Shown in pieces: positions 1 through 15,251 of a DNA stretch of 15,788 nt. The first letter of the stretch is position 1; every line of letters starts with the position of its first letter. The translations under genes were made by a program, and so were the position numbers. The DNA is from a virus (Duplodnaviria; Heunggongvirae; Uroviricota; Caudoviricetes), in the IMG/VR virus record IMGVR_UViG_2563366800_000002; one strand, 5' to 3'. A model generated the notes under the pieces. The model searched no databases. It saw only the letters and a list, made by a program, of their open reading frames with translations, and was not told the DNA's origin.

Positions 1-1224
1 ATGGCTGGCACAAACAAACTGAGCGACAAAAAGCTAAAAGCATTGCTGGGTTCTGAGCGTGAAGCGCCGATCATGATTGCCGATGGTGAGGGGCTAAGCG
101 TTAAGGTCTCGAAGCAAGGTAACGTTAGCTGGGTATTTTCATACCGGTTGGGAGGAAGGGGTAGCAAACTCGAACGTTTAACGCTTGGCCGTTACCCTGA
201 TATGCCGCTAAAACTTGCGCGAGAAAAGCGGGAACAGTGTCGCCAGTGGCTGGCTGGTGGGCTTGATCCGAAAACTGAGATTGAGCTGAGCACAGAAGAA
301 ACGCTTAAGCCTGTAACGGTTAAAGACGCCCTGGAATATTGGTTGGTGAATTACGCCAGGAGAAAGCGCAGTGATGAGGCGTTGGTGAGGGCGCAGCTAC
401 GCAAGCATATTTACCCGCGACTTGGTCGTTATCCGATCACCAGATGTGAAACCCGCCATTGGGTGGCCTGTTTTGACGAAATAAACCAGACTAAACCCAT
501 GACCGCCGGCCGCATGTTCCAGATTTCTAAACAGGCGTTACGTTTCTGCAAGGTTCGCCGTTATGCTGCCAGTGATGCTCTGGCCTTTCTCACCATTCAG
601 GATGTAGGCCAGCCATCTGGTCAACGTGATCGCGTATTGTCAGATAGCGAGCTGGCTGATGTGTGGCGCTGTACAGATAGCGATGATCAGCAGCCGTATT
701 ATTCACGTCTGCTCAAAATGCTGGTGCTTTTTGGTGCGCGAACGATGGAAGTTCGCCTTTCTCGATGGTCAGAGTGGGATTTTACATCGTGGATTTGGAC
801 TGTACCGAAAGAGCATAGCAAAACCAGAGAGAAAATCGTGAGGTCGATACCTGAAGCTATACGCCCGTGGCTGGAAGAGTTAAAGCGCGAGACAGGGAAA
901 ACAGGTTTGTTACTGGGCGAAGATCGTACCCGTCAGGCTGTATCATTGAAAGGGCGCAGGCTTTTTAAAGATTTTCACCATAACGAGCCGTGGACACTTC
1001 ACGATCTGCGTCGGACGTTTTCTACGGGGCTAAACAATATGGGTATAGCACCGCATATAGTCGAGCTGCTGTTGGGCCATGCCTTGCCGGGAGTTATGGC
1101 GATTTATAACCGTAGTCTTTACTTACCGGAGAAGCTGGACGCGCTGAACAAGTGGTATGACCGCTTAGAACTTCTCGCGGGTAATCACTCTAATATCGTT
1201 ATTTTAAAGGCTGGTGAAAAATGA
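1..1224 (+). CDS. int: Tyrosine site-specific integrase, P4-type
   Basis: 407-aa ORF. C-terminal catalytic region has HDLRRTF, LLGH and the AIYNR tyrosine typical of tyrosine recombinases; N-terminal region resembles the arm-binding domain of P4-like integrases. Gene sits at the island edge. Confidence 0.9.
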   Translation: MAGTNKLSDKKLKALLGSEREAPIMIADGEGLSVKVSKQGNVSWVFSYRLGGRGSKLERLTLGRYPDMPLKLAREKREQCRQWLAGGLDPKTEIELSTEETLKPVTVKDALEYWLVNYARRKRSDEALVRAQLRKHIYPRLGRYPITRCETRHWVACFDEINQTKPMTAGRMFQISKQALRFCKVRRYAASDALAFLTIQDVGQPSGQRDRVLSDSELADVWRCTDSDDQQPYYSRLLKMLVLFGARTMEVRLSRWSEWDFTSWIWTVPKEHSKTREKIVRSIPEAIRPWLEELKRETGKTGLLLGEDRTRQAVSLKGRRLFKDFHHNEPWTLHDLRRTFSTGLNNMGIAPHIVELLLGHALPGVMAIYNRSLYLPEKLDALNKWYDRLELLAGNHSNIVILKAGEK

Positions 1225-2024
1225 GAATTAGCCACAAAAAAGATTTGCCAACATGGTTTGATTTAGATAACTACACTCAATTTATTGGCATGTCAGATAA
1301 AGACTTATTTTATCAGTTGGTTGTTAGATATGACATGCTTGAAAACTTCTATCGATATGGCGGGTCTTTTTATAATGAACCTCTTACAAATAACGATGAA
1401 GTAGGAAGGATACTTGGAAATGGCGCGGTCGCTAATGCGATTGATAGAGCTACGTACTTCTATGATGCGTTTAAACTTCCTATTAAAAGAGAAGGTGTTT
1501 TGTCTGGTGGGGTTGCGTTACGACCAATGTCCATTGAAGACTTTATTTATATGAAAGATGCTGTAGATAATTATATGGAAAATAATTTTACGGGAACGGC
1601 TGAAAATTTAGTTTACCATTCATTTACAAGTGTTAGCTCATTTTTGGAACCAAATGACCTTTTTATTAAAGTTGATTTGTCACGCCCGGATGATTTATTG
1701 ATTGATGTGTTTAAAAAAAACCTCAAGAATTGGCGTGAGGAATTAAAAATAAAAGAAAAGGAAAAAACATACCAGTCATGGGAAACAATTAAAAAAAAGG
1801 TATACGATTATTCACTTTTCCCCGTAGTTGATTTGATGATCTGGGCTAAATCTCGCGGGGCATGCGTCACCAATGGCGTGCTTGCTGTGGCTGTGTTTCC
1901 GAACGGAGAGTATGACTCAACGCAGATAGCGCAAACCGTAAAGCCAAATATAGAAAAAATCTTCTCAATTTCTTCTATAGAAAAAATCAGGTCAGAACTT
2001 CAGGATAGAAAAATTCTTCCTTAA
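1221..2024 (+). CDS. Hypothetical protein, AT-rich orphan cargo gene (function unknown)
   Basis: 267-aa ORF whose ATG (1221) overlaps the integrase TGA (ATGA). Hand counts on three 60-nt lines give 23 to 38% GC, against 57% for a line in int. Lys/Asn/Asp/Tyr-rich protein with no motif I recognise. Confidence 0.6.
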   Translation: MRISHKKDLPTWFDLDNYTQFIGMSDKDLFYQLVVRYDMLENFYRYGGSFYNEPLTNNDEVGRILGNGAVANAIDRATYFYDAFKLPIKREGVLSGGVALRPMSIEDFIYMKDAVDNYMENNFTGTAENLVYHSFTSVSSFLEPNDLFIKVDLSRPDDLLIDVFKKNLKNWREELKIKEKEKTYQSWETIKKKVYDYSLFPVVDLMIWAKSRGACVTNGVLAVAVFPNGEYDSTQIAQTVKPNIEKIFSISSIEKIRSELQDRKILP

Positions 2025-2119
2025 TCTTGGTGGTCAAAACAATTTAATTTTCGTCTAGTGTGACATCCAATCACAAGGATAACAATAGCCCCCACAAACT
2101 TAGAAACAGTGGAGGCAAC

Positions 2120-2404
2120 ATGCAAATTATCACCTTTACCCCGCCAAATCCTGAACAACGCCGCACCATTCTGGAGGAGTACGGCTTCAAGTTCGATCGC
2201 CGAATCCGCGAAGATGAATGCAGCGAGATCACCAGTCTTTCTCGTTCGAGCCGCTGGAAGATGGAACAGCAGGGGCGCTTCCCGCCGCGCTGTCACTTTG
2301 GCCGCAACAGCTGTGCCTGGCTTCTTTCGGATGTGCTCTGGTGGGTTCGTAATCCGCCTGCCGTGGAAAACGTCAATAACCCGTACAGCCGCAAATCTGC
2401 TTAA
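2120..2404 (+). CDS. alpA: AlpA-family transcriptional regulator (phage/island excision-type regulator)
   Basis: GGAGG at 2111-2115 then ATG at 2120. The 94-aa product has the AlpA-like helix-turn-helix pattern (ITSLSRSSRWKMEQQGRFPP ... AWLLSDVLWWVRN). The ORF-track start at 2060 lacks an RBS. Confidence 0.75.
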   Translation: MQIITFTPPNPEQRRTILEEYGFKFDRRIREDECSEITSLSRSSRWKMEQQGRFPPRCHFGRNSCAWLLSDVLWWVRNPPAVENVNNPYSRKSA

Positions 2405-2424
2405 TTAACCACAGGTAATCAGAG

Positions 2425-3108
2425 ATGAAAAATATTAATGCCCTTAACGGGCAGGGATTCGCTCACCCTGTTGCCAGTAAAAGCGATATTAGCGTGCAGC
2501 TTAAACAGCTTCCTGCCGTCGAATTTCACGGGCAACGCGTGGTGACGTTCGCAATGATTGATACCGCGCACCAGCGACCTAAAGACACGGCTAAAAAGAC
2601 TTTTCAGCGTAATCGCACTCGCTTCATTGATGGTGAGGACTTTTTTATTGTCGGCGCGTCAGAGGTCGAATGGGGAGGGGCTGGATATTTAGACAGGGGC
2701 ATTAAACGCCCTGGCAAAAAAATGAACAGTCCGATACGTGGCCGCGTAACACTGATTACGGAATCAGGCTATCTGCTGCTGACCAAACCGTTTAACGATG
2801 ATTTGGCCTGGCAGGTACAGCGCCAGCTCGTGAAAACTTATTTCCGTTGCCCGGAGTTTGTCACTTTCCATCATGTGGATCTGCCGTCGCTCGAAGAACT
2901 GATCGCCATGCCGGTTACTGATGCGCAAAACGCCGTGACTCGTGCGGACAAGCATTCTAAGCAGTTTCATGGCTCACAGGGCAGTAATGGAATGAATCTC
3001 CGCAAGAAGGAACTCAAAGTTCTGCGTCCGGCGGTACGGCTGGTAGATGCGATGGGGCAGATTGATTTCGATAAATATGAGTGGGAGGCGGCACATGATC
3101 GCGCATAA
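2425..3108 (+). CDS. ORF6N-domain protein (antirepressor-like DNA-binding protein)
   Basis: 227-aa ORF. N-terminal segment (FHGQRVVTF..IDTAH...DTAKKTFQRNRTRFIDGEDFFIV ... GRVTLITESGYLLLTKPFNDDLAWQVQRQLVKTYF) fits the ORF6N pattern as recalled from memory. Confidence 0.65.
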   Translation: MKNINALNGQGFAHPVASKSDISVQLKQLPAVEFHGQRVVTFAMIDTAHQRPKDTAKKTFQRNRTRFIDGEDFFIVGASEVEWGGAGYLDRGIKRPGKKMNSPIRGRVTLITESGYLLLTKPFNDDLAWQVQRQLVKTYFRCPEFVTFHHVDLPSLEELIAMPVTDAQNAVTRADKHSKQFHGSQGSNGMNLRKKELKVLRPAVRLVDAMGQIDFDKYEWEAAHDRA

Positions 3109-3225
3109 AACAAAGGCGACCGGGGGCGGTCGCCAATGGGAAAACACTAAACATAAGCCCGAACATCATAGCGATTTGCTGGCTGGTGGGCAATGTGATC
3201 AGTGTGCTGGCTTGCTGGTGGGCTG

Positions 3226-3408
3226 TCAGCCTTTGGGTTCTATGCCTTCTTTGCGTAGCTTATCACGACAAGCATTTTTTACCCATGAGCTGAAATTACC
3301 AGGCCCTGCAACTTCGTTAATTTGTTGCAACAATGTGTCTTCGAAGCGGATGTTTTTCTTTGTGCTGCCGGAGCGATCAAATTTTGGTTTCACATTTTCT
3401 TCTTGCAT
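3226..3408 (-). CDS. YlcI/YnfO-like small ribbon-helix-helix-type protein, candidate repressor
   Basis: 60-aa ORF on the minus strand with KNIRFEDTLLQQINEVAG..GNFSSWVKNACRDKL, matching the YlcI/YnfO signature as recalled. GGTGG lies 9 nt upstream of the ATG. Divergent from the primase operon. Confidence 0.6.
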   Translation of the reverse strand: MQEENVKPKFDRSGSTKKNIRFEDTLLQQINEVAGPGNFSSWVKNACRDKLRKEGIEPKG

Positions 3409-3454
3409 TGGTACGTACCACCGTTATAAACTGAAATCAAATGGTACGTACCAC
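3409..3454. promoter_or_regulatory. Two copies of a 13-bp palindrome-containing repeat TGGTACGTACCAC (3409-3421 and 3442-3454) in the divergent promoter region; candidate operator
   Basis: Exact direct repeat, 33 bp centre to centre; the GGTACGTACC core is a perfect palindrome. Abuts the start of the minus-strand gene and lies about 100 bp upstream of the + strand operon. Confidence 0.5.
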
Positions 3455-3483
3455 ATTAAAAATACGCAACCATTAAATACAGC

Positions 3484-3518
3484 GAAGCCCGGCAGTGCGG
3501 GAACACTAACCGGGCTTC
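3484..3518 (+). other. Leader hairpin: 9-bp perfect inverted repeat GAAGCCCGG / CCGGGCTTC with a 17-nt loop, upstream of the first operon gene
   Basis: Read directly from the sequence. Lies between the operator repeats and the ATG at 3554; not followed by a T-run. Confidence 0.4.
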
Positions 3519-3553
3519 TAACCACCAACGATAACGAGAGTATCGAGGCAGCT

Positions 3554-3757
3554 ATGAGAAATCATACCATACACCCGCAAGGGCGGGACTCGTACAACCT
3601 GAATAAATACATCTGGCGTTTTATCGCCCTGAGCACGGCACAACCGCGCGTGATTCACATCGTGGCCACCAGCGAACAGGAAGCACGCCAGCAATCCCCG
3701 GCTGGCTGCGTGATGGTATTCGCCGCCCGTATTCGTCAGGGGGTGTGCCATGCCTGA
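3554..3757 (+). CDS. Small protein, possible Icd-like host cell division inhibitor; first gene of the primase operon
   Basis: GAGG 5 nt upstream of ATG 3554. The 67-aa product (MRNHTIHPQGRDSYNLNKYIWRFIAL...VMVFAARIRQG) resembles Icd-like proteins of P4-family prophages from memory only. Its end overlaps the next ORF start. Confidence 0.45.
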   Translation: MRNHTIHPQGRDSYNLNKYIWRFIALSTAQPRVIHIVATSEQEARQQSPAGCVMVFAARIRQGVCHA

Positions 3758-4070
3758 TATGTCAAATTACCAGTACCTGATTAATCCGCATTTTAACTGT
3801 GAGCATGATATTGCTAAAAAGGTTTATTCCGCTGCGGATGGGGCTACTGACAATATATCAATGGGTATTGCGTCAATTGGTAGCCTGATGTGGCATGCGT
3901 CAGAAAATGAGGAATATGACGAAAAGGCTATGCGCATTGATATGGGTAATATCGGTTTGTTACTGGCAATGCTTGGGCAGTTTGATATTTCGTTACGGTG
4001 CACCATTGAAAATGCCACAGATGCATTAAATGCCATAAAGAAAGCGAATACTGATTCAAATCGGGGATAA
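3750..4070 (+). CDS. Hypothetical small protein (positional analogue of P4 epsilon)
   Basis: 106-aa ORF whose ATG overlaps the upstream stop by 8 nt. No recognisable motif. Confidence 0.45.
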   Translation: MPDMSNYQYLINPHFNCEHDIAKKVYSAADGATDNISMGIASIGSLMWHASENEEYDEKAMRIDMGNIGLLLAMLGQFDISLRCTIENATDALNAIKKANTDSNRG

Positions 4071-4076
4071 ATAATC

Positions 4077-4376
4077 ATGAGAACATATTTATCTGGCTTG
4101 ACTGCCAGCGGTTATGCACACCCCAAAATTATCCCCGGCGCTATTTATTGGGATAAGAACGGCAACAGAGTAACAGTAAAATCGATAATGTTTGACCGTG
4201 TGTATTTTATTCGTGATGGCTATTCATTTCATAGCTCGCTGAACGTGGAGATCTTTATTTGCAGATTCCGGCGGGAAATCCCGCCTTCCAGAAATAACCA
4301 TGTGTCATGTATGGATGTTGATAAAAAACTACAGGAACTGAAAAACATGATTGCCGCGTGGAGAGAGCAGAAATGA
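4077..4376 (+). CDS. Hypothetical small protein, translationally coupled to the primase gene
   Basis: 99-aa ORF. Its TGA (4374-4376) overlaps the primase ATG (4373-4375) as ATGA. Confidence 0.45.
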   Translation: MRTYLSGLTASGYAHPKIIPGAIYWDKNGNRVTVKSIMFDRVYFIRDGYSFHSSLNVEIFICRFRREIPPSRNNHVSCMDVDKKLQELKNMIAAWREQK

Positions 4377-6496
4377 AAAAAGCGCCAAATTTAAAACACC
4401 AGCCACGTGACAAAATGACGGAAGTCATCATTTTTGCGGGTAGTGATGCGTGGGCACATGCGAATCAGTGGCAGGAACAGGACGGGCGACTGGCTGGCGA
4501 TAACGTGCCTCCTGTCTGGCTTGGAGAGCAACAACTTGCCGAACTGGACAACCTGCAAATCGTACCGGACGGACGCTATCGCGTGCGTCTCTATCAGGCG
4601 GGGTTATTGCGTCCGGGGCTTGTTAATACCATCGGGCAGAAACTGGCAGCGGCAGGTGTCAGGGATGCTGATTATTATCCTGAAGGAATGCACAGCCAGA
4701 AACGGGAGAACTGGCGCGAATATCTGGAACGTGAACGGGCAGAGCAGGCGGAAAAGAAAAAGGTAGTTGAACTGCCTGTAAAGAAAAAAGAGCCATGCTA
4801 TCAGGATGATGAATTAAAGCCCCGCGTTGAAAGTCGCGTCGATGGTGTTTTCTGGGTAACGCCCAAAGTGGATAAGCAGTCAGGCGAAATTATCCGGCCT
4901 GAGACGTGGTTATGTTCTCCGCTTGAACTACTGGGAACGGGGACGATCGGTAAAGAGCATTACCGCGTGATGCGCTGGAAAAAATTAGCAAACCATGAAG
5001 TCATCACAATGGCGATCCCGTGTGGTGGCATTGGCGACCGTGACGGCTGGCGGTTGCTTAAAGATCACGGGCTGAATGTGACAACAAACGGCAAATACAG
5101 GGCTATCCTGGCTGACTGGATGCAGTTAAGCGGAAGCCATGAGGAATGGCAGTTAAGCACAACAACGGGCTGGCATTTTGGCGCGTACATCATGCCGGAC
5201 GGTTCAATCATTGGTGATTCTGAAAAACCGATCCTGTTTACCGGAAAAAGTGCCGCTGTTAATGGCTATTCGGTTGCGGGTACGGCGGAGGGCTGGCGCG
5301 ACAGCGTGGCGCGGCTGGCTGGTGGCAATCCGTCCATGATGCTGGGTGTTGCCACGTCACTGGCAGCACCTTTGATTGGCCTTGTTGGTGCTGACGGCTT
5401 CGGGGTACATCTTTTCGAACAGTCATCGGCAGGGAAAACCACCACGCAGAACATCGCTTCAAGTTTATGGGGAGAGCCGGACGCGCAACGGCTGACCTGG
5501 TACGGAACGGCGTTAGGTATCGCCAACGAGGCCGAAGCACACAACGACGGGCTGTTACCCCTGGATGAAATAGGCCAGGCCGGAAACGCGCGGGAAGTGT
5601 CCACGTCAGCCTATACGCTGTTTAACGGTTCGGGGAAATTACAGGGGGCGAAGGACGGCGGCAACAGGGAGATCAAACACTGGCGCACGGTGGCAATCAG
5701 CACCGGAGAAATGGATGTTGAGACATTCCTCAAAAGTGAGGGGGTAAAAGTCAAAGCAGGCCAGCTTGTCCGTCTGCTTAACGTACCGATGGAGAAAGCC
5801 ACGCAATTTCACGAATACAGCACCGGAAAGGCGCACGCAGACGCGTTAAAGGATGCCTGGACTGCAAATCACGGGGCGGCGGGTCGTGAGTGGGTTAAAT
5901 GGCTGGCAGACCACCAGCAGGAGGCAAAGGACACGGTAAGGGAATGCCGCGAACGGTGGCACAACCTGATACCGGAGAGCTACGGCGAGCAGGTCCACCG
6001 CGTGGGGGAACGTTTCGCCATACTGGAGGCTGCGCTTGTGCTTTCCGGTCATGTAACTGGCTGGGCCGCGCAGGAATGCCGGGACGCAATACAGCATAAC
6101 TTTAATGCCTGGGTGAAGGAGTTCGGCACGGGTAACAGGGAATTTAAACAGATGGTTGAACAGGCTGAGGCGTTTTTGTCGTCGTTCGGGTTCAGTCGAT
6201 ACCTTCCTTACCCAAACAGTGATGAGCGTGATTTACCGATTAAAGACCTTGCCGGATACAGAAAGGGGAGTATCAGAAATGAAGATGATGAGTTCCGCTT
6301 TTACACGTTTCCTCATGTGTTTGAGGGTGAGATAGCACAGGGATTTAATCCGTCTCACTTTGCCCGCGCGTTGAGTGCTGCCGGAATGCTGGAAGCGGGT
6401 AACGATCGCCGTTACAAGAAAAAGGCGCTCGGCAAAATTGGGGGGAAGCAGCATGTTTTTTACGTGCTGATGTTCCAGCCTGAAGCAGAAGATTAA
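4373..6496 (+). CDS. Primase/helicase-type replication initiator (P4 alpha-like)
   Basis: About 707 aa from ATG 4373 (the track's 4358 is a GTG five codons upstream). Walker A-like SSAGKTTTQNIASSLWG in the central region; followed directly by an iteron array. Confidence 0.85.
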   Translation: MKKAPNLKHQPRDKMTEVIIFAGSDAWAHANQWQEQDGRLAGDNVPPVWLGEQQLAELDNLQIVPDGRYRVRLYQAGLLRPGLVNTIGQKLAAAGVRDADYYPEGMHSQKRENWREYLERERAEQAEKKKVVELPVKKKEPCYQDDELKPRVESRVDGVFWVTPKVDKQSGEIIRPETWLCSPLELLGTGTIGKEHYRVMRWKKLANHEVITMAIPCGGIGDRDGWRLLKDHGLNVTTNGKYRAILADWMQLSGSHEEWQLSTTTGWHFGAYIMPDGSIIGDSEKPILFTGKSAAVNGYSVAGTAEGWRDSVARLAGGNPSMMLGVATSLAAPLIGLVGADGFGVHLFEQSSAGKTTTQNIASSLWGEPDAQRLTWYGTALGIANEAEAHNDGLLPLDEIGQAGNAREVSTSAYTLFNGSGKLQGAKDGGNREIKHWRTVAISTGEMDVETFLKSEGVKVKAGQLVRLLNVPMEKATQFHEYSTGKAHADALKDAWTANHGAAGREWVKWLADHQQEAKDTVRECRERWHNLIPESYGEQVHRVGERFAILEAALVLSGHVTGWAAQECRDAIQHNFNAWVKEFGTGNREFKQMVEQAEAFLSSFGFSRYLPYPNSDERDLPIKDLAGYRKGSIRNEDDEFRFYTFPHVFEGEIAQGFNPSHFARALSAAGMLEAGNDRRYKKKALGKIGGKQHVFYVLMFQPEAED

Positions 6497-6520
6497 CTCC
6501 CCTGTGTGAGGTGAAAAGTT

Positions 6521-6643
6521 GCGGGTTATGCGGGTTATCCTGTGTGTAAGTGCATTAACTGTATGAATAAAAAGGAAATCAATAACCCGCACGTAACCCG
6601 CAAAACGGCAGTTATAACCCGCAAAAGTGCGATTATAACCCGC
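6521..6643. repeat. Iteron-type replication origin: GCGGGTTAT x2 (6521-6538), AT-rich spacer, then the complement ATAACCCGC in four copies (6582-6643)
   Basis: Read directly. Inverted arrangement of a 9-mer around an AT-rich core, immediately downstream of the primase gene. Confidence 0.6.
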
Positions 6644-6707
6644 AGAATTTCACCGTAAGGGTGTAAACAAGCGTAACTATCAACGTTAAAACCGGAGAAC
6701 AGACAGC

Positions 6708-7130
6708 ATGACAGCACAGATAGCAGCTTACGGGCGGCTGGTGGCTGACCCGCAGTTAAAGACCACCAGCAAGGGCACACAAATGGCTATGGCAAGCATG
6801 GCGGTCCCCCTGCCGTGCAATCAGGCAGATGACGGACAGGCGACGATGTGGTTATCCGTCCTGGCGTTTGGCAGACAGGCCGACGCACTGGCAAAACACC
6901 ACAAAGGCGAGCTGGTGAGCGTGGCGGGTAACATGCAGGTAAGCCAGTGGACAGGCCAGAACGGGGAAACGCGGCAGGGCTGGCAGGTTATCGCAGACAG
7001 CGTAATCAGTGCCAGAACGGCGCGACCTGGTGGCAAAAAAGGCCAGCAGGGTCAGGCTACTGACGCTCTAAATAGGGCTAAGCAACAGGCGGGGAATGAT
7101 GATCCATACGGGGATAACATACCCTTTTAG
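6708..7130 (+). CDS. ssb: Single-stranded DNA-binding protein (SSB-like)
   Basis: GGAGA RBS then ATG 6708. 140-aa product with a Gly/Gln-rich linker and an acidic C-terminal tip DDPYGDNIPF resembling the SSB DDDIPF tail. Confidence 0.7.
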   Translation: MTAQIAAYGRLVADPQLKTTSKGTQMAMASMAVPLPCNQADDGQATMWLSVLAFGRQADALAKHHKGELVSVAGNMQVSQWTGQNGETRQGWQVIADSVISARTARPGGKKGQQGQATDALNRAKQQAGNDDPYGDNIPF

Positions 7131-7147
7131 CGATAACAGGGGGATAC

Positions 7148-7396: not shown

Positions 7397-7405
7397 AGCG
7401 ATAAA

Positions 7406-7670: not shown

Positions 7671-8816
7671 ATGAAGAAATTAATCGAACTCCGCCAGCAA
7701 AAAAACGCCCTGAAAAACCAGATGCGATCCCTGCTGGAAAAAGCCGACAGTGAAAACCGCAGCCTGAACGATGACGAGGGCAAACAGTTTGATGAACTGC
7801 GTGCAAAAGCCGATTCCCTCGACACAGAAATTTCCCGTCTTGAAGCTGTTGCGGATGAAGAACGTAACCAGCCTGGTGTTTCCGTCGAAGAGAAAATCAC
7901 CAAAGATGAACTGCGCTCTTACATTCTGACCGGGGAAACCCGCAACCTGTCCGGCAGTGTCCCGGCTGATGGTGGCTATACCGTTATTCCCGAGCTGAAT
8001 AAAGAGATTATGCGCCAGCTTGCCGATGAATCGGTGATGCGCAAAATCTGTACCGTTAAAACCATTCACAGCAATGAATTTAAGCAACCGGTTTCCGCTG
8101 GTGGCGCGGTGGTTGAGCATGGCGAGGAAGGTGCGGCACGTAACCAGACGGCAACGCCGAAACTGAACGAAGTCAGCATCCGCCTGTATCCGATCTACGC
8201 TTACCCGAAAACCACTCAGGAAATTATCGATTTTTCCGAAGTCGATATTATGAGCTGGTTATCTTCTGAAATTGGCGACACTTTCGTTGATACCGAAGAA
8301 ACGGATCTGGTTTCCGGTGACGGCGAGAAAAAAGCTAAAGGTTTCCTGGCGTTCCCGCGCACTGCGGATAACGACAAAACCCGTCCTTTCGGTACGCTCC
8401 AGACGAAAAAAGTTACTGGCAGTCTCAGCGCCGACATGCTGATTGACCTGAAATTTACGCTGCGCAATAAGTACCGCAAAAAAGCTGTATGGGTGATGAA
8501 CTCAAATACAGCCGCCTCCGCACAAAAACTGAAAAATGCCACTGGTGATTACATCTGGCGCGATCGTTTACAGGCTGGTGATCCTGATTCTCTGCTGGGG
8601 CTTCCGGTTGAATATCTGGAATTTATGCCGGACGGTGTGATTGCAGTAGGTGACTTTAAGCGCGGTTATTTCATCGTTGACCATGAAACCGGTACGCGTA
8701 CCCGTCCGGACTTCAGCGAACCCGGATTCATTAACATCTATACCCAGAAATATCTGGGCGGTGGTGTGGTGGATTCGAACGCCATCAAGATTCTGGAAAT
8801 TCAGGCTGGTGAGTAA
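7671..8816 (+). CDS. Major capsid protein, HK97-like fold, with N-terminal coiled-coil scaffold-like domain
   Basis: 381-aa ORF. Charged, heptad-like N-terminus (first 70 aa) then a capsid-like body; followed by a strong terminator and a prohead protease gene. Confidence 0.8.
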   Translation: MKKLIELRQQKNALKNQMRSLLEKADSENRSLNDDEGKQFDELRAKADSLDTEISRLEAVADEERNQPGVSVEEKITKDELRSYILTGETRNLSGSVPADGGYTVIPELNKEIMRQLADESVMRKICTVKTIHSNEFKQPVSAGGAVVEHGEEGAARNQTATPKLNEVSIRLYPIYAYPKTTQEIIDFSEVDIMSWLSSEIGDTFVDTEETDLVSGDGEKKAKGFLAFPRTADNDKTRPFGTLQTKKVTGSLSADMLIDLKFTLRNKYRKKAVWVMNSNTAASAQKLKNATGDYIWRDRLQAGDPDSLLGLPVEYLEFMPDGVIAVGDFKRGYFIVDHETGTRTRPDFSEPGFINIYTQKYLGGGVVDSNAIKILEIQAGE

Positions 8817-8822
8817 TGAGCA

Positions 8823-8845: not shown

Positions 8846-8864
8846 AGCTTCAGGGGATACACCG

Positions 8865-9425
8865 ATGAAAAACACCGATTTTGAAATCCGCACATCTGAA
8901 CTGACCGCCAGCAATAAAAAGCTGGTGGGGTATGCCGTTCGCTGGAACAGCCTTTCAGAAATTATCTGGGACGAATTCCGCGAACAGTTCACGCCGGGGG
9001 CTTTTGCTGACTATCTGGCGGCGGGTAATGATGTGCGCTGCCTGTATGAGCATGACTATACCCAACTGCTGGGGCGCACCAAATCCGGCACTCTGGTACT
9101 GACTGAGGATAACACCGGGTTACGTTTTGAACTGACACCGCCGGATACCCAGCTTGGAAAAGATGTGCTTACGCTGGTGGAGCGTGGCGACATTACAGGA
9201 ATGAGCTTTGGTTTTCGCGCATTATGCGAGGAGTGGAGTATCGCGCAAAAACCGTATTTGCGTACCGTAACCGCCGCTGAACTCCGTGAAATCACAATAA
9301 CGTCGATGCCTGCTTATCCAGAATCTGGCGTGGAGATTGCCCACCGTTCGTTGTTTGCACAGCACCCTGAATTATGCCCGACAGGAAATAATCGTCATCG
9401 CTGGTCTGAGCTGGCGGGGTTGTGA
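8865..9425 (+). CDS. Prohead maturation protease, HK97 family
   Basis: 186-aa ORF with AGGGGA RBS. N-terminal pattern (ELTASNKKLVGYAVRWNSLS...GAF...LYEHD...LGRTKSGTLVLTEDNTGL...ERGDITGMSFGF) is typical of HK97-family proteases. Confidence 0.8.
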   Translation: MKNTDFEIRTSELTASNKKLVGYAVRWNSLSEIIWDEFREQFTPGAFADYLAAGNDVRCLYEHDYTQLLGRTKSGTLVLTEDNTGLRFELTPPDTQLGKDVLTLVERGDITGMSFGFRALCEEWSIAQKPYLRTVTAAELREITITSMPAYPESGVEIAHRSLFAQHPELCPTGNNRHRWSELAGL

Positions 9426-9426
9426 T

Positions 9427-10641
9427 ATGTGGTGGCCTTTTAGTCGTAAAAAAAGCGAGCAGCGTAACCTGTCCATTGATGATTTTCTGGCGCTGTCCGG
9501 CGTACCGAATACCGGATCCGGAGAATATGTTTCTGCCGGGACGGCTGAATCATTGCCTGCAGTGATGAACGCGGTTTCTGTCATCGCTGAGGCGGTGGCC
9601 ACGATGCCGTGTTATCTGTATCTGGTACGTAATGACAAGGGCAGGGAGGCGCGGGAATGGCTGGACAGTCACCCGGTAGATATTCTGCTGAATGAGCAGC
9701 CTAATTCGTGCCAGACACCTTACCAGTTTAAACGCACAATGATGCGTCACTGCCTGCTGAACGGTAACGCCTATGCGGTTATTGAGTGGGGGCAAGACGG
9801 GCAGCCAAAATCACTTCATCCTTATGCGCCGGGGTGTGTTGTACCGGAACGCACAGGCGCACACAAATACCGCTATACCATCACCGAACCCTATACAGGA
9901 ACGGTGCGCACGTATTTACAGGAAGAAGTTCTGCATCTCCGCTATGCCTCGGATGATGGCTTTCTGGGGCGTTCCCCTGTCACGATTTGCCGTGAGGCGC
10001 TTGGGCTTGGCCTTGCTCAACAGCGCCACGGAGCCAGCATTATGAAAGATGGCATGATGGCGGCAGGGATTATCACGTCAGGCGAATGGCTGGACGGCGT
10101 GAAAGGTAAACAGGCATTAGATGCTCTGGAACGCTACAAGGGGGCGAAAAATGCCGGAAAAACGCCAATCCTTGAAGGGGGCATGGATTACAAGCAACTG
10201 GGAATGAGTAACCAGGATGCGGAATGGCTGGCCTCCCGTCGCTTCTCCATTGAAGACATCGCCCGCATGTTCAACGTATCGCCTATTTTTCTGCAGGAAT
10301 ACAGCAACAGCACCTACAGCAATTTCAGCGAGGCAAGCCGCGCGTTTCTGACCATGACAATGCGCCCATGGCTGGCGAACTTCGAACAGCAAATCAAGGC
10401 CGCTTTGCTGGTGGCTTCTCCCGTACCTGGTACCCGTTATCTGGTTGAGTTTGATTCAGCCGATTTATTACGCGCCACACCCACCGAACGTTATGCCACG
10501 TATGAGAAAGGGATTAAGAACGGGATCATGAATCCGAACGAAGCCCGTGAGCGTGAGGGTATGCCGCCGCGTGAAGGTGGTGATGAGTTCAGCCAGGCAT
10601 GGAAACAGACTGTGGAAATTAAAGGGAGAAAAGATGAGTGA
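9427..10641 (+). CDS. Portal protein, HK97 family
   Basis: ATG at 9427 directly after the protease stop (the track's 9337 start would overlap the protease by 90 nt). About 404 aa, placed next to protease and capsid. Confidence 0.8.
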   Translation: MWWPFSRKKSEQRNLSIDDFLALSGVPNTGSGEYVSAGTAESLPAVMNAVSVIAEAVATMPCYLYLVRNDKGREAREWLDSHPVDILLNEQPNSCQTPYQFKRTMMRHCLLNGNAYAVIEWGQDGQPKSLHPYAPGCVVPERTGAHKYRYTITEPYTGTVRTYLQEEVLHLRYASDDGFLGRSPVTICREALGLGLAQQRHGASIMKDGMMAAGIITSGEWLDGVKGKQALDALERYKGAKNAGKTPILEGGMDYKQLGMSNQDAEWLASRRFSIEDIARMFNVSPIFLQEYSNSTYSNFSEASRAFLTMTMRPWLANFEQQIKAALLVASPVPGTRYLVEFDSADLLRATPTERYATYEKGIKNGIMNPNEAREREGMPPREGGDEFSQAWKQTVEIKGRKDE

Positions 10642-11376: not shown

Positions 11377-11545
11377 ACAGGAGCAAACCAGGCTGATACG
11401 TGGACTGATAAGGCAGCGTGACACATGGAAGACACAGGAGACAGAGCACAAAGCCAACAGGACAGGGCGCACAAAACGCACCACAGCGAAGCGATTAACC
11501 GACCGTGACCGCGAGGTCATGGAATGTTTTCGCAATCGCTGGTGA
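11366..11545 (+). CDS. Possible small basic protein (59 aa) overlapping the HNH stop; uncertain
   Basis: Tandem ATG at 11366 and 11369, ORF to TGA at 11545; Arg/Lys/Thr-rich product. No clear RBS; could be a non-coding part of the packaging site. Confidence 0.2.
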   Translation: MMTEQEQTRLIRGLIRQRDTWKTQETEHKANRTGRTKRTTAKRLTDRDREVMECFRNRW

Positions 11546-11553
11546 GGCCGTCA

Positions 11554-11613
11554 GAGGGGGTGGGGGTGGTTTTCAGGACGAAACCGTCCCTGCCGGACAC
11601 CGACCGCCCCCTC
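11554..11613. other. G-rich nested dyad symmetry between HNH and TerS; candidate cos / terminase recognition region
   Basis: GAGGGGGTGG (11554-11563) pairs with CCGCCCCCTC (11604-11613); inner CAGGACG ... CGTCCCTG; followed by T-rich AAATTTTTGTG. The position matches where cos lies in HK97-like genomes. Confidence 0.3.
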
Positions 11614-11663
11614 AAATTTTTGTGCACGGTAATTTTTTTGAAAATAATTGGGCGAAAAAAAAC

Positions 11664-12020: not shown

Positions 12021-13665
12021 GTACGCAGAAGGCGTAAAAAACGGCAAAATTACGGCCTGTAAACGACTGAAACAGGCCGTTAAACGGTATTTTTCTGACC
12101 TTGAAAACCCCCTTTACACGTTCGATCCGGAGGTCGTGGAGCGGTTTATTGCCTTTTCCAGGGTGTGTCCGCACGTAAAAGGCGCAATGCGCGGTAGCCC
12201 CATTGAGCTGGAGCCGTGGCAGCAGTTCGCCTTTGCGTGCATCCTGGGCTTTAAGGTTAAGGCCACCGGACGGCGCAAATACACCAGCGCATTCATTGAA
12301 GTACCTCGAAAAAATGCCAAATCCACGGTCGCCGCTATCCTGGCTAACTGGTTTCTGGTTATGGAAAACGGGCAGCAGGATATTTACACCGCCGCCGTGA
12401 GTCGTGATCAGGCGCGGATCGTGTTTGATGATGCGCGTCAGATGTGCCTTTTATCCCGACCGTTACGAAAGCGGGTAAATATTCAGGCACACAAGGTGAT
12501 ACACCCGAAAACCAACAGTCTGTTAAAGCCACTGGCAGCAAAAGCAGCAACCATTGAAGGTACAAACCCGAGTCTTGCCATTGTGGATGAATATCACCTG
12601 CACCCTGACAACGGGGTTTATTCCGCGCTTGAACTGGGAATGGGGGCACGCCCGGAGGGGCTGTTATTTGCCATCACCACATCGGGGAGCAACGTTGTTT
12701 CAGCCTGTAAACAACACTACGACTATTGCTGCCAGATACTGGATGGTGAAGAGGTGAACGAATCCATGTTCGTTCTGATTTATGAGCTGGATGATGAAAG
12801 CGAGGTTGACGATCCGGCGATGTGGATAAAGGCGAATCCCAATATCGATGTTTCCGTAGATCGTGAAAAACTGGCCTCAACCATCCAGAAAGCGCGGGGT
12901 ATTCCGTCGCAGTGGGTGGAAATGCTCACCAAGCGATTCAATATCTGGTGTCAGGGGGCTACGCCGTGGATGGGTAACGGTGCATGGGCTGAGTGCGCCG
13001 GAACGTTCACGGAGGAAGATTTACACGGTCAGGAGTGTTACGCGGGGCTTGATTTATCATCCACAAGCGACATCTCCAGCGTGTGCTATGCCTTTCCGGT
13101 TGGTAAAACCATTATGCTGGTTTCTCGTCACTATCTGCCGGAATTTCAGCTACAGAACCCCGCCAATAAAAACCGCGCCATCTATCGCCAGTGGGCAAAG
13201 GCGGGCTGGATACGCACAACACCGGGTGACTGCATTGATTATGACCGTATCCGTGATGACATCATGGCGGATGCAGAGAATTTCAATATCAGGCTGGTGG
13301 GCTTTGATACGTGGAACGCCACGCACCTGAGAACGCAGTTACAGGGGGCAGGCTTTGAGGTGGAGCCGTTCCCTCAAACCTACCTTCGTTTCAGTCCGGC
13401 GGCGAAATCGTTCGAGGTTTTTGTTAACCGGAAGGTGATTGTGCATCGTGGTGATCCGGTGCTGGCCTGGTCAATGAGTAATGTTGTGATGCAGAGTGAC
13501 GCGAACGCCAATATCAAGCCGAACAAGAAAAAATCATCCAACAAGATAGACCCGAGCGTTGCGGCGCTGATGGCGTTTGGCACATTCCAGGCTGAGCATG
13601 AGGAATTTGCATTTGATATGAGCGACAGCCAGAAAGAGCGACTAGCGGCATTTGATGGGGTATGA
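12004..13665 (+). CDS. terL: Terminase large subunit
   Basis: 553-aa ORF. N-terminus (W.EYAEGV.NGKI.A ... IELEPWQQF) and ATPase region are typical of TerL. The only in-frame start near the N-terminus is TTG at 12004, overlapping terS by 17 nt. Confidence 0.8.
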   Translation: MTAWHEYAEGVKNGKITACKRLKQAVKRYFSDLENPLYTFDPEVVERFIAFSRVCPHVKGAMRGSPIELEPWQQFAFACILGFKVKATGRRKYTSAFIEVPRKNAKSTVAAILANWFLVMENGQQDIYTAAVSRDQARIVFDDARQMCLLSRPLRKRVNIQAHKVIHPKTNSLLKPLAAKAATIEGTNPSLAIVDEYHLHPDNGVYSALELGMGARPEGLLFAITTSGSNVVSACKQHYDYCCQILDGEEVNESMFVLIYELDDESEVDDPAMWIKANPNIDVSVDREKLASTIQKARGIPSQWVEMLTKRFNIWCQGATPWMGNGAWAECAGTFTEEDLHGQECYAGLDLSSTSDISSVCYAFPVGKTIMLVSRHYLPEFQLQNPANKNRAIYRQWAKAGWIRTTPGDCIDYDRIRDDIMADAENFNIRLVGFDTWNATHLRTQLQGAGFEVEPFPQTYLRFSPAAKSFEVFVNRKVIVHRGDPVLAWSMSNVVMQSDANANIKPNKKKSSNKIDPSVAALMAFGTFQAEHEEFAFDMSDSQKERLAAFDGV

Positions 13666-13955
13666 CGAGAATGACTGAAACCGATCTACTAAAAATAATT
13701 CGCTGCGTTACCGGAGTCTGCCAGGCAACAGGCAAACCGGAGGCCAAGCAGCCGGATACCGTCACCGCTGAAAATTACGCGCGTGTGGTGGCTAAGGTGA
13801 TGCGCCGTGACGGTATTGAGCTTAACGGCGTGGATATGCGCAACATACGAACCAGAGTCCTTGAGTTGCTGGCATACCGTCGCCGTTCTCAACAACGGAG
13901 GGAGAGCGCGAAAAATACTTACCAGTGGAAGAAGCCGGAACGGTTGCGGCGGTAG
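13662..13955 (+). CDS. Hypothetical protein, last gene of the packaging operon
   Basis: 97-aa ORF; ATG 13662 overlaps the terL TGA (ATGA). Basic C-terminus (RRRSQQRRESAK). No recognisable motif. Confidence 0.4.
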   Translation: MTRMTETDLLKIIRCVTGVCQATGKPEAKQPDTVTAENYARVVAKVMRRDGIELNGVDMRNIRTRVLELLAYRRRSQQRRESAKNTYQWKKPERLRR

Positions 13956-14294
13956 ATTCCTGATATTCAGGAAAACCACGAATCTGTGGGTTTTACTGGC
14001 GCGGTTACGGCGGTGACACGCACCGAGGCAGAACAATTACCGTAGGTTAAAGCGACAGTATTCACACCAAAGGCAGAAATTAGCGGTTAACGTAACTGAC
14101 TGATATTTTCAGGAACAGCCAACGGCTGAGGCCGGAGCTATAAGAATAGCTTTGGGTACAGTCCTCAGTTTTGAGGGATGTTAACCAACTGAATAATAAG
14201 CAAACCTCAAAATTGAGTTTTGTATCTGCCTGAGTTATTTCTGTGCTAACTTGTTGATATTCCCGACGGCCCAAAAATGGGTTGGCTGGTGGGT

Positions 14295-14412
14295 GAGTTG
14301 CAGATTTGCAACTCGACCATGAAACTACGGAAACTACCCGTAGTTTGGGTAGTAAGAGCAACACCCAGATTTTGGGGCTTACTCGCGATCCCCAAATAAA
14401 GGGGATCGGTGG
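14295..14412. repeat. 118-bp structured repeat, copy A
   Basis: Six mismatches to copy B over 118 aligned positions, no indels. Starts with the near-palindrome GAGTTGCAGATTTGCAACTC and contains further inverted repeats (AAACTACGG / CCGTAGTTT; CCCC / GGGG). Confidence 0.75.
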
Positions 14413-14442
14413 CATCACTGGCCCCACTTTCCTGATGTGTTT

Positions 14443-14594
14443 GCGGGTTATTTGGGAGAGGTTGCGGGTTATTTTGAATGACTTGCGGGTTACGATTTGG
14501 CTAACATTTGAACATGTCATTTTTCAACGCATTGATATTAAATAATAAAAAATACTTAGCACGCGAAGATAACCCGCTAACCCGCATAACCCGC
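14443..14594. repeat. Second iteron cluster: GCGGGTTAT / GCGGGTTAC x3 (14443-14493), AT-rich spacer, complement ATAACCCGC-type x3 (14569-14594)
   Basis: Same 9-mer and the same inverted layout as the origin at 6521-6643, about 7.9 kb away. Confidence 0.55.
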
Positions 14595-14728
14595 ACTGTT
14601 TTGTATATATATACGAAAAATTGCATTCAGGAGGGGTAGCAAAATCCCTACCGTCTCTTATCTCTTGGAGTGCCCGCCTCTTCGAATTTTAACCCCCGTG
14701 AAATTACAAAATTTCCCTGACTGATGGC

Positions 14729-14846
14729 GAGTTGCAGATCTGCAACTCGACTATGAAACTACGGAAACTACCCGTAGTTTGGGTAGTAAGAGTAACACCC
14801 AGATTTTGGGGCTTACTTGCGATACCCAAATACAGGGGATCGGTGG
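14729..14846. repeat. 118-bp structured repeat, copy B
   Basis: Direct repeat of 14295-14412, offset 434 bp. Here the first 20 bp form a perfect palindrome GAGTTGCAGATCTGCAACTC. Confidence 0.75.
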
Positions 14847-15251
14847 AAGAAATATCGTTTCTCATATGTGAGTACCGAGGGCGGAATTCCGCCTTCGGTT
14901 ACTTATTGTGCTCATGCACAGGGAGGGGCGGGTCAAATCTCTGTACCCTGACGTCTTCCGGACTGCCCGCTCCATCGATTTTTTATACCCGCGAAAAATG
15001 CTTCACGCTGGTGGGCATGATGCGTGGGGATGCTGATAATGGGTTATTGTGGGATAGATGTCTCATACAATAAGAGATTCATAATTTGCTTTTTAATACT
15101 GTTATACTCGCCGCCTTTCTACCGTGCTCATGCTTTCGCATATTTTCGGCTTTGTGCAATAATCCGTATATCACTCGGTGTATCACTTTTAGCTAAAATG
15201 CATGGCGTGTTTGTTAATTTAACTGATTAAAATCAGTGGGATATAAAGTTT

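Follow-up and report, generated by a model that had tools for sequence, protein, structure and literature searches.

Chi sites in an integrated capsid-forming phage satellite beside Escherichia coli hpt

Chi-rich phages and the satellite at hpt

Over-representation of Chi is known from Rec-/Inh- lambdoid phages and from concatemer-packaging phages, whereas Rec+Inh+ phages avoid the octamer (Bobay et al. 2013, PMC3784561). The LLS-type lambdoid phages described as having “no Rec module, high Chi” (Zheng et al. 2025, PMC12315714) correspond to the Rec-/Inh- lambdoids of Bobay et al. (PMC3784561). P1-like phages are among the strongest over-representers (Bobay et al., PMC3784561), and P1 is cited as Chi-selected by Zheng et al. 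(PMC12315714). For satellites, we found no earlier report of Chi over-representation in the literature, and papers on capsid-forming PICIs (cf-PICIs), including that on the prototype EcCIEDL933 (Alqurainy et al., 10.1101/2022.09.08.507074), do not mention Chi or RecBCD.

The window analyzed here, a stretch of 15,788 nucleotides, is an integrated cf-PICI, a phage satellite beside E. coli hpt. The ∼15.4-kb island is inserted at the hpt start codon and its body occupies positions 1..15250 on the + strand, with ∼172 bp on the attL side falling beyond the window. The att core, TATGAAACATA(C/T)TGTAGAAG, overlaps the hpt start codon; the attR copy (TATGAAACATATTGTAGAAG) lies at 15251..15270 (+), and attL is ∼170 to 190 bp upstream of position 1. 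The gene order is int, DUF6387, AlpA, ORF6N anti-repressor, Icd-like, DUF4222, DUF927 primase, and SSB, followed by major capsid, S78 prohead protease, portal, head-tail connector, HNH, TerS (P27), TerL, and an accessory/cis region. Every recognized island gene is on the + strand, which has a strong GC skew (+0.09). The gene content makes this a cos-type packaging satellite with HNH, TerS, and TerL, which supports the cos-ended nature supposed in the sequence-only reading. We recognized no strand-annealing recombinase, no exonuclease, and no inhibitor of RecBCD (Gam, Abc2, or gp5.9) in the island, and an inhibitor could be hidden among its small open reading frames (ORFs) of unassigned function. 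The island is Rec-/Inh- in the sense of Bobay et al. but, because it encodes an SSB, not strictly “no Rec module” in that of Zheng et al.

Like the LLS-type phages, the island is a temperate, cos-packaging, concatemer-dependent Enterobacterales element without a strand-annealing recombinase or RecBCD inhibitor. Both it and LLS carry many Chi sites, mainly on the top strand with the terminase genes drawn on the left (12:3 and 20:3, respectively) and more densely toward the right end, and in neither does codon usage explain them. Unlike LLS, the island is a 15-kb satellite that lacks tail, lysis, and lambdoid regulatory genes and has an SSB, and its Chi density is higher (∼1.0/kb versus 0.54 in LLS and ∼0.2 in the Rec- set of Bobay et al.). 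RecBCD dependence has been demonstrated for LLS; for the island, we propose it by analogy. EcCIEDL933 has the same layout (int-alpA-primase, then capsid-protease-portal-connector-HNH-TerS-TerL), a similar length (∼15.4 kb), and ∼74 to 80% nucleotide identity to the window in the packaging module, but it has another integrase and an att at roxA/phoQ rather than hpt; it carries 8 + and 5 - Chi, its second commonest octamer. P1 is likewise temperate and without its own general recombination system, and it needs RecA and RecBCD; its 94.8-kb genome, by contrast, is packaged by the headful (pac) mechanism, has terminal redundancy, and circularizes by recombination, whereas the island has cohesive ends.

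Based on the evidence set out here, we think it probable, at roughly 60%, that Chi serves the satellite to tame RecBCD on its own linear or concatemeric DNA, as in Rec-less, Chi-rich lambdoid phages and P1, with selection on the element itself having loaded it with Chi.

Chi census and excess over chance and host

An exhaustive scan of the window for GCTGGTGG found 13 + and 3 - sites, of which 12 + and 3 - belong to the island. On the + strand, Chi occurs in the integrase gene (253..260, in the Ala-Gly-Gly frame GCT-GGT-GG and common to the relative KSC9, or L001), in the ORF6N-to-Icd stretch (3182..3189, common to KSC9), 32 bp downstream of the latter (3214..3221, not in KSC9), in the DUF927 primase gene (5318..5325, Ala-Gly-Gly frame), and at the 5′ end of the SSB gene (6737..6744, Leu-Val frame). 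The last of these is directly right of the iterons (TAACCCGC) of a probable replication origin in the primase-SSB intergenic region (6497..6707). Further + sites lie in the major capsid gene (8097..8104), the prohead protease gene (8921..8928 and 9173..9180), the portal gene (10407..10414), the TerL gene (13293..13300), the accessory/cis region (14285..14292, antisense only to the doubtful “orf146-”), and an unsupported ORF at 14732-15073 in the accessory region (15007..15014). The three - sites are in the Icd-like gene region (3666..3673), the primase gene (5911..5918), and the SSB gene (6763..6770), the latter two common to KSC9. Outside the island, a + site in chromosomal hpt (15362..15369) is in the same place in K-12. 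The stretch around 3182 may be noncoding, since no family matches the N-terminal part of “orf236”.

The sequence-only reading had listed the same 13 + and 3 - sites and missed none; its position 5328 was a typographical error for 5318. It had also put two Chi copies exactly at att-like junction ends, which is incorrect: none is at the att junction, the site at 253 being within the integrase gene and that at 15007 being 244 bp from attR. The 18-nucleotide similarity between these two sites is just Chi plus a few bases.

Chi is the commonest octamer in the island, and its count is far above that in shuffled sequences. Dinucleotide shuffles gave a mean of 0.39 Chi (maximum, 3 in 200). Synonymous-codon shuffles, which leave every protein and the codon set of every gene unchanged, gave 1.67 on the + strand of the window (maximum, 6 in 3000) versus 13 observed and 0.52 on the - strand versus 3 observed; for the island coding sequences alone, the values were 1.17 versus 10 and 0.48 versus 3. 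One-mismatch neighbors are 17 times rarer than Chi, with a corresponding contrast of 5.3 times in the K-12 flank, and NCTGGTGG is G in 12/15 cases. Peptide contexts capable of encoding Chi do so in 10/15 cases in the island (6/11 Leu-Val-G and 4/4 Ala-Gly-Gly) versus 22/71 (31%) in host leading-strand genes.

These counts bear on the idea that G-rich skew, frequent CTG/GTG codons, and particular peptides yield Chi by chance. The + strand skew suits it, as do the eight + sites in the CTG-GTG frame (one in hpt, the other seven in the island), and Leu-Val codon usage had been offered as a partial cause. Leu-Val is, however, no more frequent per codon in the island than in host genes (it is less so), four island sites are in the Ala-Gly-Gly frame, and both the rarity of one-mismatch neighbors and the bias toward G speak against chance. 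The codon-preserving shuffles refute this explanation as far as computation can, and we give it next to no chance.

Comparison with the host gives a smaller excess. The 15 Chi in 15.25 kb exceed the 3.3 expected at the K-12 mean by 4.5-fold (P=2e-6), in agreement with the early estimate of several-fold above the E. coli average. The chromosome shares the octamer, its leading/coding-strand preference, and a similar observed/expected ratio; host leading-strand core genes have 0.37 sense Chi/kb, an observed/expected ratio of 4.4, and only 0.034/kb in the opposite orientation. Against these genes, the window excess is only ∼2x (P=0.01 to 0.03); in total Chi, the island has 15 versus 6.2 expected (P=0.002; 2.4 times the density). 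The cf-PICI family mean of 0.42 sense Chi/kb is not above the leading-strand value (P=0.08). Leading-strand core genes are the fairest host baseline, and this comparison counts against our preferred explanation.

Some shaping of cf-PICIs by the chromosome is real, because they invariably run with replication (KOPS in the flanks are 9:0 with the gene strand) and their own KOPS are co-oriented and at host level (14:1 for E. coli elements, 3:0 for the window). The island, mostly integrated and co-oriented, might have taken on the polar Chi and KOPS architecture of the host leading strand as a whole, either during long residence or under host-level selection for repair of forks and for segregation, with Chi having no role in the satellite cycle. 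The family's sense-Chi density and observed/expected ratio, both close to the values for K-12 leading-strand genes, would agree with this, as would the lambdoid prophages, 98% of which are known to be co-oriented and which carry KOPS at the host level. We nevertheless consider it unlikely. In addition to the excess in island total, four classical E. coli PICIs (43.6 kb) carry 26 + and 20 - Chi, or ∼1/kb, versus 17.6 expected from leading-strand genes (P=1e-8), yet have no KOPS. Chi in the opposite orientation is of no use in fork repair and is rare in host leading-strand genes, yet in E. coli PICIs it is enriched 6 to 7 times over shuffles. P4 and Rec+Inh+ lambdoid prophages are also integrated, yet have few or no Chi. 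Finally, the element is accessory, being present in ∼10% of genomes, and per-site host-level selection on it should be weaker than on core genes, not stronger.

Conservation among relatives

Chi is the commonest or second commonest + strand octamer, at 4 to 12 times the shuffled level, in each of the six closest relatives, namely, KSC9, EcCIEDL933, vB_KppS-Ant (derived from virions), and three further E. coli islands. Among 21 representative Enterobacterales species taken together, it outnumbers every other octamer (137 versus 60 for the runner-up), with counts that are not independent because the relatives share ancestry. It is also first or second in 10/10 Enterobacteriaceae, but some of the other elements fall short of this; Chi is absent from two Symbiopectobacterium loci. 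The Pasteurellaceae relatives show no Chi enrichment. The columns of the conserved sites are non-Chi in the Xenorhabdus and Pasteurellaceae relatives despite conserved peptides. Chi richness is a family-wide and host-specific trait.

Four sites are exact Chi in 58 to 75% of relatives versus 14.5% for the mean octamer. Among the 24 other Enterobacterales relatives, the protease site at 8921 is exact in 62% (95.6th percentile of all octamers) and that at 9173 in 75% (98.6th percentile), the latter with a preceding codon that varies (ACG/GAG/GCG) and a constant final G. The portal site at 10407 is kept in 6/6 E. coli/Klebsiella relatives and 58% of the family, and the TerL site at 13293 in 58% of the family. 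The major capsid site at 8097 is rare, being exact in 2/25 Enterobacterales sequences (window included) and 2/7 Pasteurellaceae; close relatives have ACTGGCGG (L001, L004, and L005) or GCTGGCGG (L003). Synonymous third positions within the four conserved sites are 0.92 conserved, versus 0.55 overall, 0.54 in the 12-nucleotide flanks, and 0.69/0.60 for CTG/GTG codons elsewhere. Substitutions sit immediately beyond the octamer and conservation ends exactly at its edges, which again argues against a compositional origin. These patterns support nucleotide-level purifying selection on the sites across genera. Because relatives conserve Chi sites, satellites probably share the strategy known from phages. 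In EcCIEDL933, both protease-gene Chi have been lost and two new ones occur elsewhere in that gene.

Orientation, cos, and RecBCD

The sequence-only reading had stressed that Chi falls mostly in one orientation. The + bias exists (12:3) but is no greater than coding-strand asymmetry predicts (shuffle-expected ratio, 2.4 to 3.2:1; binomial P=0.3 to 0.5), because all island genes sit on one strand, and orientation bias within the window is not itself evidence of function. A putative cos site lies in the intergenic region between a small ORF after HNH and terS (11546..11663). Its position and the end that would be exposed are taken from the linear virion-derived record of one relative, vB_KppS-Ant, which terminates at the homologue of window positions 11555-11579. 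Oriented Chi had been suggested to serve linear cos-ended DNA, and the + orientation is the one recognized by RecBCD entering via this presumed right cos end, which is also the case in lambda and LLS. Chi density peaks near that end, and the portal site is the first correctly oriented Chi, ∼1.17 kb inside it.

Under our preferred explanation, cos packaging by HNH-TerS-TerL and the lack of a recognizable recombinase, exonuclease, or RecBCD inhibitor would leave the satellite with DNA stages that have free double-strand ends, namely, the right cos end from terminase cutting, rolling-circle or concatemer tails, and, in a new cell, the end injected first. RecBCD, which we infer to act on island DNA in vivo, would load at the right end and move leftward, meeting + strand 5′-GCTGGTGG-3′ from its 3′ side, the first after ∼1.2 kb and four within 3.5 kb. 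Recognition would switch the enzyme from DNA degradation to RecA loading, which would limit loss of the 15-kb genome and favor recombination giving packageable multimers. The benefit may be protection of incoming linear DNA, Chi-stimulated concatemer formation in the donor (the LLS/P1 model), or both. Helper phages, of which HK106 and HK446 are known, would, if Gam is expressed, leave RecBCD off in the donor cell, which counts against the proposal.

The same sequence facts would be expected if dense Chi instead halted degradation early, so that little DNA reached Cas1-Cas2 or other degradation-dependent defenses, and the benefit were escape from adaptive immunity rather than replication or packaging. 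RecBCD degradation products are described in the literature as feeding CRISPR adaptation. Chi sites are said to limit this feeding, reportedly a 2015 finding of Levy et al. The both-strand enrichment in classical PICIs would suit protection from either end. Such evasion would leave both the Chi richness of concatemer-needing phages and the peak in Chi density close to the right cos end unexplained; we regard it as very improbable as the main cause. It is compatible with RecBCD taming and may be additive rather than exclusive.

The contrasts with classical PICIs and P4 fit the taming of RecBCD, in our reading. P4 is, like the island, an integrating E. coli satellite with its own primase and cohesive ends, and it has no Chi in 11.6 kb (probability, 0.05 at the density of the host and 1e-4 at that of PICIs). 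P2 and P4 are packaged from monomeric circles. Together with the absence of Chi, such packaging fits the contrast between monomer- and concatemer-packaging phages drawn by Bobay et al. (PMC3784561). The island also shows a P4-like pair of ∼120-nucleotide direct repeats around an iteron cluster. In the accessory/cis region, the Chi at 14285 abuts copy 1 of a 121-nucleotide direct repeat.

Gene content and boundaries of the island

The window holds an E. coli chromosomal island with gcd on one side and hpt on the other. Its genes, all on the + strand, encode in order an integrase, DUF6387, AlpA, an ORF6N anti-repressor, an Icd-like protein, DUF4222, a DUF927 primase, SSB, major capsid protein, S78 prohead protease, portal, head-tail connector, HNH, TerS, and TerL. 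Pfam matches to Phage_integrase with Arm-DNA-bind_3, Phage_AlpA, and DUF927 make up the PICI early module (relatives are annotated alike), and the packaging genes matched Phage_capsid, Peptidase_S78, Phage_portal, Phage_connect_1, HNH, and Terminase_4, with TerL taken from annotation. The capsid-protease-portal-connector-HNH-TerS-TerL order is that of capsid-forming PICIs (cf-PICIs) of Proteobacteria, and family scans of the window ORFs returned no tail, holin, or lysis family. Judged by this architecture (an early module, capsid and packaging genes of its own but none for tails or lysis, ∼15 kb, att-flanked), the island is a cf-PICI. Helper induction, small tail-less capsids, and high-frequency transfer are traits of that class; the sequence of a Klebsiella relative, vB_KppS-Ant, came from induced particles. 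The prototype cf-PICI, EcCIEDL933, is a separate lineage with a packaging module ∼74 to 80% identical to that of the window. This module was found in 534 of 5,426 complete E. coli genomes; the exact island was absent from complete genomes, where the best match had 97.3% identity over 94% of the window.

Comparison with K-12 and the relative KSC9 placed a 20-bp att core, TATGAAACATA(C/T)TGTAGAAG, on the hpt start codon. attR lies at 15251-15270 and attL ∼170 to 190 bp upstream of the window, as seen in the KSC9 homologue, giving an element of ∼15.4 kb (about 15,422 bp). The insertion falls within the 19 bp that open the hpt reading frame (hpt, 15252-15788), and the island rebuilds them. The native 205-bp upstream region of hpt in K-12 is displaced ∼15 kb, to the gcd side, so hpt in lysogens must be transcribed from island-derived sequence.

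Two clusters of an iteron motif, TAACCCGC, are separated by about half the length of the circular element. The first, between the primase and SSB genes (6497-6707), has copies at 6521 and 6530 on the − strand and at 6583, 6594, 6615, and 6636 on the + strand. The second (region 14290-14850) has copies at 14443, 14464, and 14485 (−) and at 14570, 14578, and 14587 (+) and is flanked by 121-nt direct repeats (14292-14412 and 14726-14846) that are 94% identical, a layout similar to that of P4, which has an ori plus crr with two 120-bp repeats. The − strand “orf146” (14080-14520), which overlaps the region of the second cluster, matched no family and is unlikely to be a gene.

Chi content against shuffled and host baselines

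An exhaustive scan of the window for Chi, GCTGGTGG, found 13 copies on the + strand and 3 on the − strand, compared with a mean of 0.39 expected under dinucleotide shuffles. The sequence-only reading had overlooked none, and its positions all matched save one, 5328, which is really 5318. With the boundaries mapped, 12 + and 3 − sites belong to the island, and the + site at 15362 is chromosomal and also present in K-12. Two copies had been thought to sit at att-like junctions; with the att core mapped against K-12 and KSC9, neither 253 nor 15007 does. The neighboring sites at 3182 and 3214, 32 bp apart, fall within a possibly noncoding stretch (3108-3485) of an ORF (3047-3757, 236 codons) whose N-terminal 146 codons have no family match and whose residues 147 to 235 match Icd-like PHROGs.

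The Chi excess is real and nonrandom. Synonymous-codon shuffles of each gene (n = 3,000) gave 1.67 expected + sites, never more than 6, and 0.52 expected − sites, so that the counts stood far above the codon-preserving shuffles that had been proposed as a check. For the island coding sequences alone, we counted 10 sense sites against 1.17 expected and 3 antisense sites against 0.48 (observed/expected, 8.6 and 6.2). Chi is the top octamer of the island, whereas its 24 one-mismatch neighbors average 0.71 copies, a 17-fold contrast compared with 5.3-fold in the K-12 flank. By reading frame, 7 of the island's + sites are xxG-CTG-GTG-Gxx, 4 are GCT-GGT-GG, and 1 is outside any supported gene. Leu-Val and Ala-Gly-Gly peptides are no commoner in the island than in host genes, and 10 of 15 Chi-capable peptide contexts are used as Chi, compared with 22 of 71 in K-12 leading-strand genes. 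Taken with the shuffles, these observations show that codon usage, including the Leu-Val CTG-GTG preference offered earlier as a partial alternative, does not explain the excess. A maximal-order Markov (M6) expectation of 11.25 was set aside as uninformative, since Chi itself dominates the underlying 7-mer counts.

At the K-12 mean (1,008 Chi per 4.6 Mb), 3.3 sites would be expected where the island has 15 (P = 2e-6; 0.98 versus 0.217 Chi/kb), which bears out the earlier estimate of a density several-fold above the E. coli average. A stricter baseline applies because every island gene is on the leading strand. Leading-strand genes in a 150-kb part of the K-12 genome have a sense Chi density of 0.37/kb (observed/expected, 4.4) and an antisense density of 0.034/kb; the window exceeds them ∼2-fold in sense (P = 0.01 to 0.03), ∼6-fold in antisense (P = 0.016), and, with both orientations summed, 2.4-fold (P = 0.002). 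A smaller baseline, 20 kb of co-oriented K-12 genes, proved insufficient, and the apparent excess of the family fell when 150 kb were used. The orientation bias proposed from sequence does exist (12:3) but is no more than coding-strand asymmetry predicts (P = 0.3 to 0.5), whereas the family-level ratio of 137:25 exceeds that expectation. A replichore-like polarity of Chi around the element's ori was not significant in pooled E. coli cf-PICIs (left, +14/−9; right, +30/−12). Within window positions 1-15250, the polar chromosome motif KOPS (GGGNAGGG) occurs three times on the + strand and never on the − strand, and + strand GC skew is +0.09, ∼3 times the K-12 leading-strand value.

Conservation and distribution of Chi among relatives

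Individual sites were examined in a 48-sequence alignment in which Enterobacterales relatives were scored for exact Chi. Of these relatives, 58 to 75% have exact Chi at the sites 8921 and 9173 (protease), 10407 (portal), and 13293 (TerL), which places the four at the 95th to 99th percentiles of octamer retention (mean, 14.5%). Synonymous third positions within the four octamers are 0.92 conserved (permutation P < 5e-5), compared with 0.55 overall, 0.54 in the adjoining 12 nt on each side, and 0.69 and 0.60 in other CTG and GTG codons. The bases directly flanking the octamer do change (TTG to CTG, GCT to GCA/GCC, and ACG to GAG to GCG). EcCIEDL933 lacks both protease sites yet has two other Chi in its protease gene, and the capsid gene site at 8097 is rare among relatives, the closest of which differ from Chi there by one or two bases. 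The columns of the conserved sites encode the same peptides in Xenorhabdus and Pasteurellaceae, but without Chi. Together, these patterns indicate that, where the host RecBCD reads GCTGGTGG, the octamer is under purifying selection and its sites turn over. We also considered a longer protein-binding motif, for example GGCTGGTGGG, and rejected it, as conservation falls at the octamer edges and synonymous positions beyond them show only background conservation.

The six closest relatives (KSC9, EcCIEDL933, three other E. coli islands, and vB_KppS-Ant) each have 6 to 10 + sites, 4 to 12 times over shuffles, and Chi ranks first or second among their + octamers. Scanning one genome per species recovered 65 loci with matching capsid-to-TerL synteny, which share ancestry, so group counts are phylogenetically nonindependent. 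Across 21 non-Morganellaceae Enterobacterales elements (327 kb), we counted 137 + sites (0.42/kb) and 25 − sites (0.08/kb), compared with 0.15 and 0.11/kb in the flanks, and Chi was the top octamer of the pool (runner-up, 60 copies). The 16 Xenorhabdus/Photorhabdus elements have 33 + and 2 − sites (flanks, 3 and 1), and the 7 Pasteurellaceae elements have 6 + sites, which is no enrichment, and 2 − sites (flanks, 2 and 1). Chi is the first or second octamer in 10/10 Enterobacteriaceae elements but not uniformly in other Enterobacterales elements, and two Symbiopectobacterium loci have none. The Pasteurellaceae-specific Chi forms (GNTGGTGG, Haemophilus-type; GSTGGAGG) showed no excess over flanks in the Pasteurellaceae relatives. 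The commonest word of the Haemophilus and Pasteurella relatives is the uptake signal sequence AAGTGCGGT, which is found on both strands at host-like density (36 + and 30 − in 111 kb; loci L049, L052, L053, L057, L058, and others).

Some relatives have unusual records. In the accessory region of vB_KppS-Ant (L007), a 765-aa ORF (2036-4333) is annotated “tail length tape measure protein,” a label unexpected in a tail-less family that may be a misannotation. One related cf-PICI (L005, NZ_CP137705.1) lies inside terL of an HK97-like prophage (coordinates 344-1372 and 16875-17618); terL is cut into N- and C-terminal pseudogene halves, inactivating the packaging gene of a potential helper. A classical PICI (L074, NZ_CP148328.1) with int, alpA, Icd-like, DUF4222, primase, protease-capsid fusion, and DUF1441 genes was deposited as a complete, circular 10,790-bp “plasmid,” possibly an excised or episomal form captured in assembly.

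RecBCD and the proposed role of Chi

Beta/RecT, Erf, Sak, Sak4, exonuclease, Gam, Abc2, and gp5.9 were not detectable by homology in Pfam and PHROGs searches of the ORFs or in a PDB sequence search of five ORFs of unassigned function. Several small ORFs have no assigned function, and the small conserved ones include phrog_1957, phrog_15327, phrog_1561, DUF4222, and DUF6387. The island does encode SSB, a Rec-module function in the scheme of Zheng et al.; it is thus Rec−/Inh− (no strand-annealing recombinase module or RecBCD inhibitor) in the sense of Bobay but not strictly without a Rec module in that of Zheng et al. Over-representation of Chi in recombinase-less phages that need concatemers is established (Bobay 2013, PMC3784561; Zheng et al. 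2025, PMC12315714), and the island, like other Rec−/Inh− Chi-rich temperate elements, carries Chi at or above host density. Propagation of one such lambdoid phage, LLS, is enhanced by RecBCD, reduced in recB/recC, and normal in recD (Zheng et al. 2025, PMC12315714). Without tail, lysis, or lambdoid early-operon genes, the island is a satellite rather than a lambdoid phage. Neither of these two studies mentions satellites, and neither the cf-PICI papers nor the SatelliteFinder paper mentions Chi or RecBCD. Full-text searches for Chi sites with PICI or phage satellite returned only a review discussing lambdoids and unrelated papers, and the searched literature contained no report of a RecBCD effect on propagation of any PICI. 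The helpers HK106 and HK446, whose Rec-module status we sought, do not appear in the text of Zheng et al. 2025.

We assign a probability of about 0.6 to the reading that PICIs belong to this known class of Chi-rich, Rec-less elements and use Chi on their own linear or concatemeric DNA, with functional steps that we infer. On that DNA, Chi would make RecBCD act as a recombinase instead of a nuclease, either during concatemer formation and packaging in the donor, where RecBCD could be silenced by helper Gam, or upon entry into the recipient. The linear vB_KppS-Ant record starts 22 bp before terS and ends in sequence homologous to window 11555-11579, which suggests a cos within the 11546-11663 intergenic region. 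Relative to this predicted cos, with the terminase genes drawn at left, the + Chi (12/15 sites, a ratio within coding-strand expectation) are on the top strand, which would be the RecBCD-active orientation of lambda and LLS (20/23 sites), where terminase leaves the right end free and RecBCD enters there (Zheng et al. 2025, PMC12315714). The nearest + Chi is ∼1.17 kb inside the inferred right end, with four within 3.5 kb, and + Chi density across the family is highest 1 to 4 kb inside that end.

The Chi load might instead reflect chromosome-level shaping of a co-oriented integrated island, an effect that is real but an improbable explanation here. Flanking KOPS lie 9:0 on the elements' gene strand, so the islands are always co-oriented with replication (as were 4/4 inspected att sites, with no relative integrated anti-oriented), and cf-PICIs carry co-oriented KOPS at host level, like lambdoid prophages. 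Shaping of this kind fails to account for Chi in the “useless” orientation, enriched 6 to 7 times over shuffles in E. coli PICIs, or for four classical E. coli PICIs (L074, L075, L078, and L079; 43.6 kb pooled) with 26 + and 20 − Chi and no KOPS. Nor does it fit P4, which has zero Chi, or Rec+Inh+ lambdoid prophages, which are integrated too yet avoid Chi (Bobay 2013, PMC3784561). Further P4-like prophages were set aside as independent samples because their cores, 95 to 99% identical to P4, add little. The classical PICIs have ∼1 Chi per kb, in near-equal numbers on the two strands despite one-strand genes; Chi in the cf-PICI packaging module is sense-only.

Most lambdoid helpers are Chi-free and Gam-reliant. 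It is conceivable, though very improbable, that Chi content is a self/nonself label in conflict with helper phages, making the host nuclease an interference weapon: the satellite would neutralize or outlast the helper's RecBCD inhibitor, and RecBCD would then destroy the helper concatemers, which lack Chi, but spare and even recombine the Chi-saturated satellite DNA. The near-symmetric Chi of classical PICIs, at ∼1 per kb, and the lack of a recognizable inhibitor are compatible with such a label.

Phage satellites are major agents of gene transfer. Should PICIs depend on Chi and RecBCD in the way we favor, the RecBCD/RecA status of donor and recipient would be a determinant of satellite spread, RecBCD-guarding defenses and phage Gam would act oppositely on satellites and helpers, and the rule to “manipulate or supersede host recombination,” known for lambdoid phages and P1, would extend to satellites. 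Chi density could also mark PICI-type, concatemer-packaged satellites apart from P4-type ones. At ∼1 Chi per kb, the density is the highest among the elements compared (LLS, 0.54/kb; Bobay's Rec− lambdoids, ∼0.2/kb).
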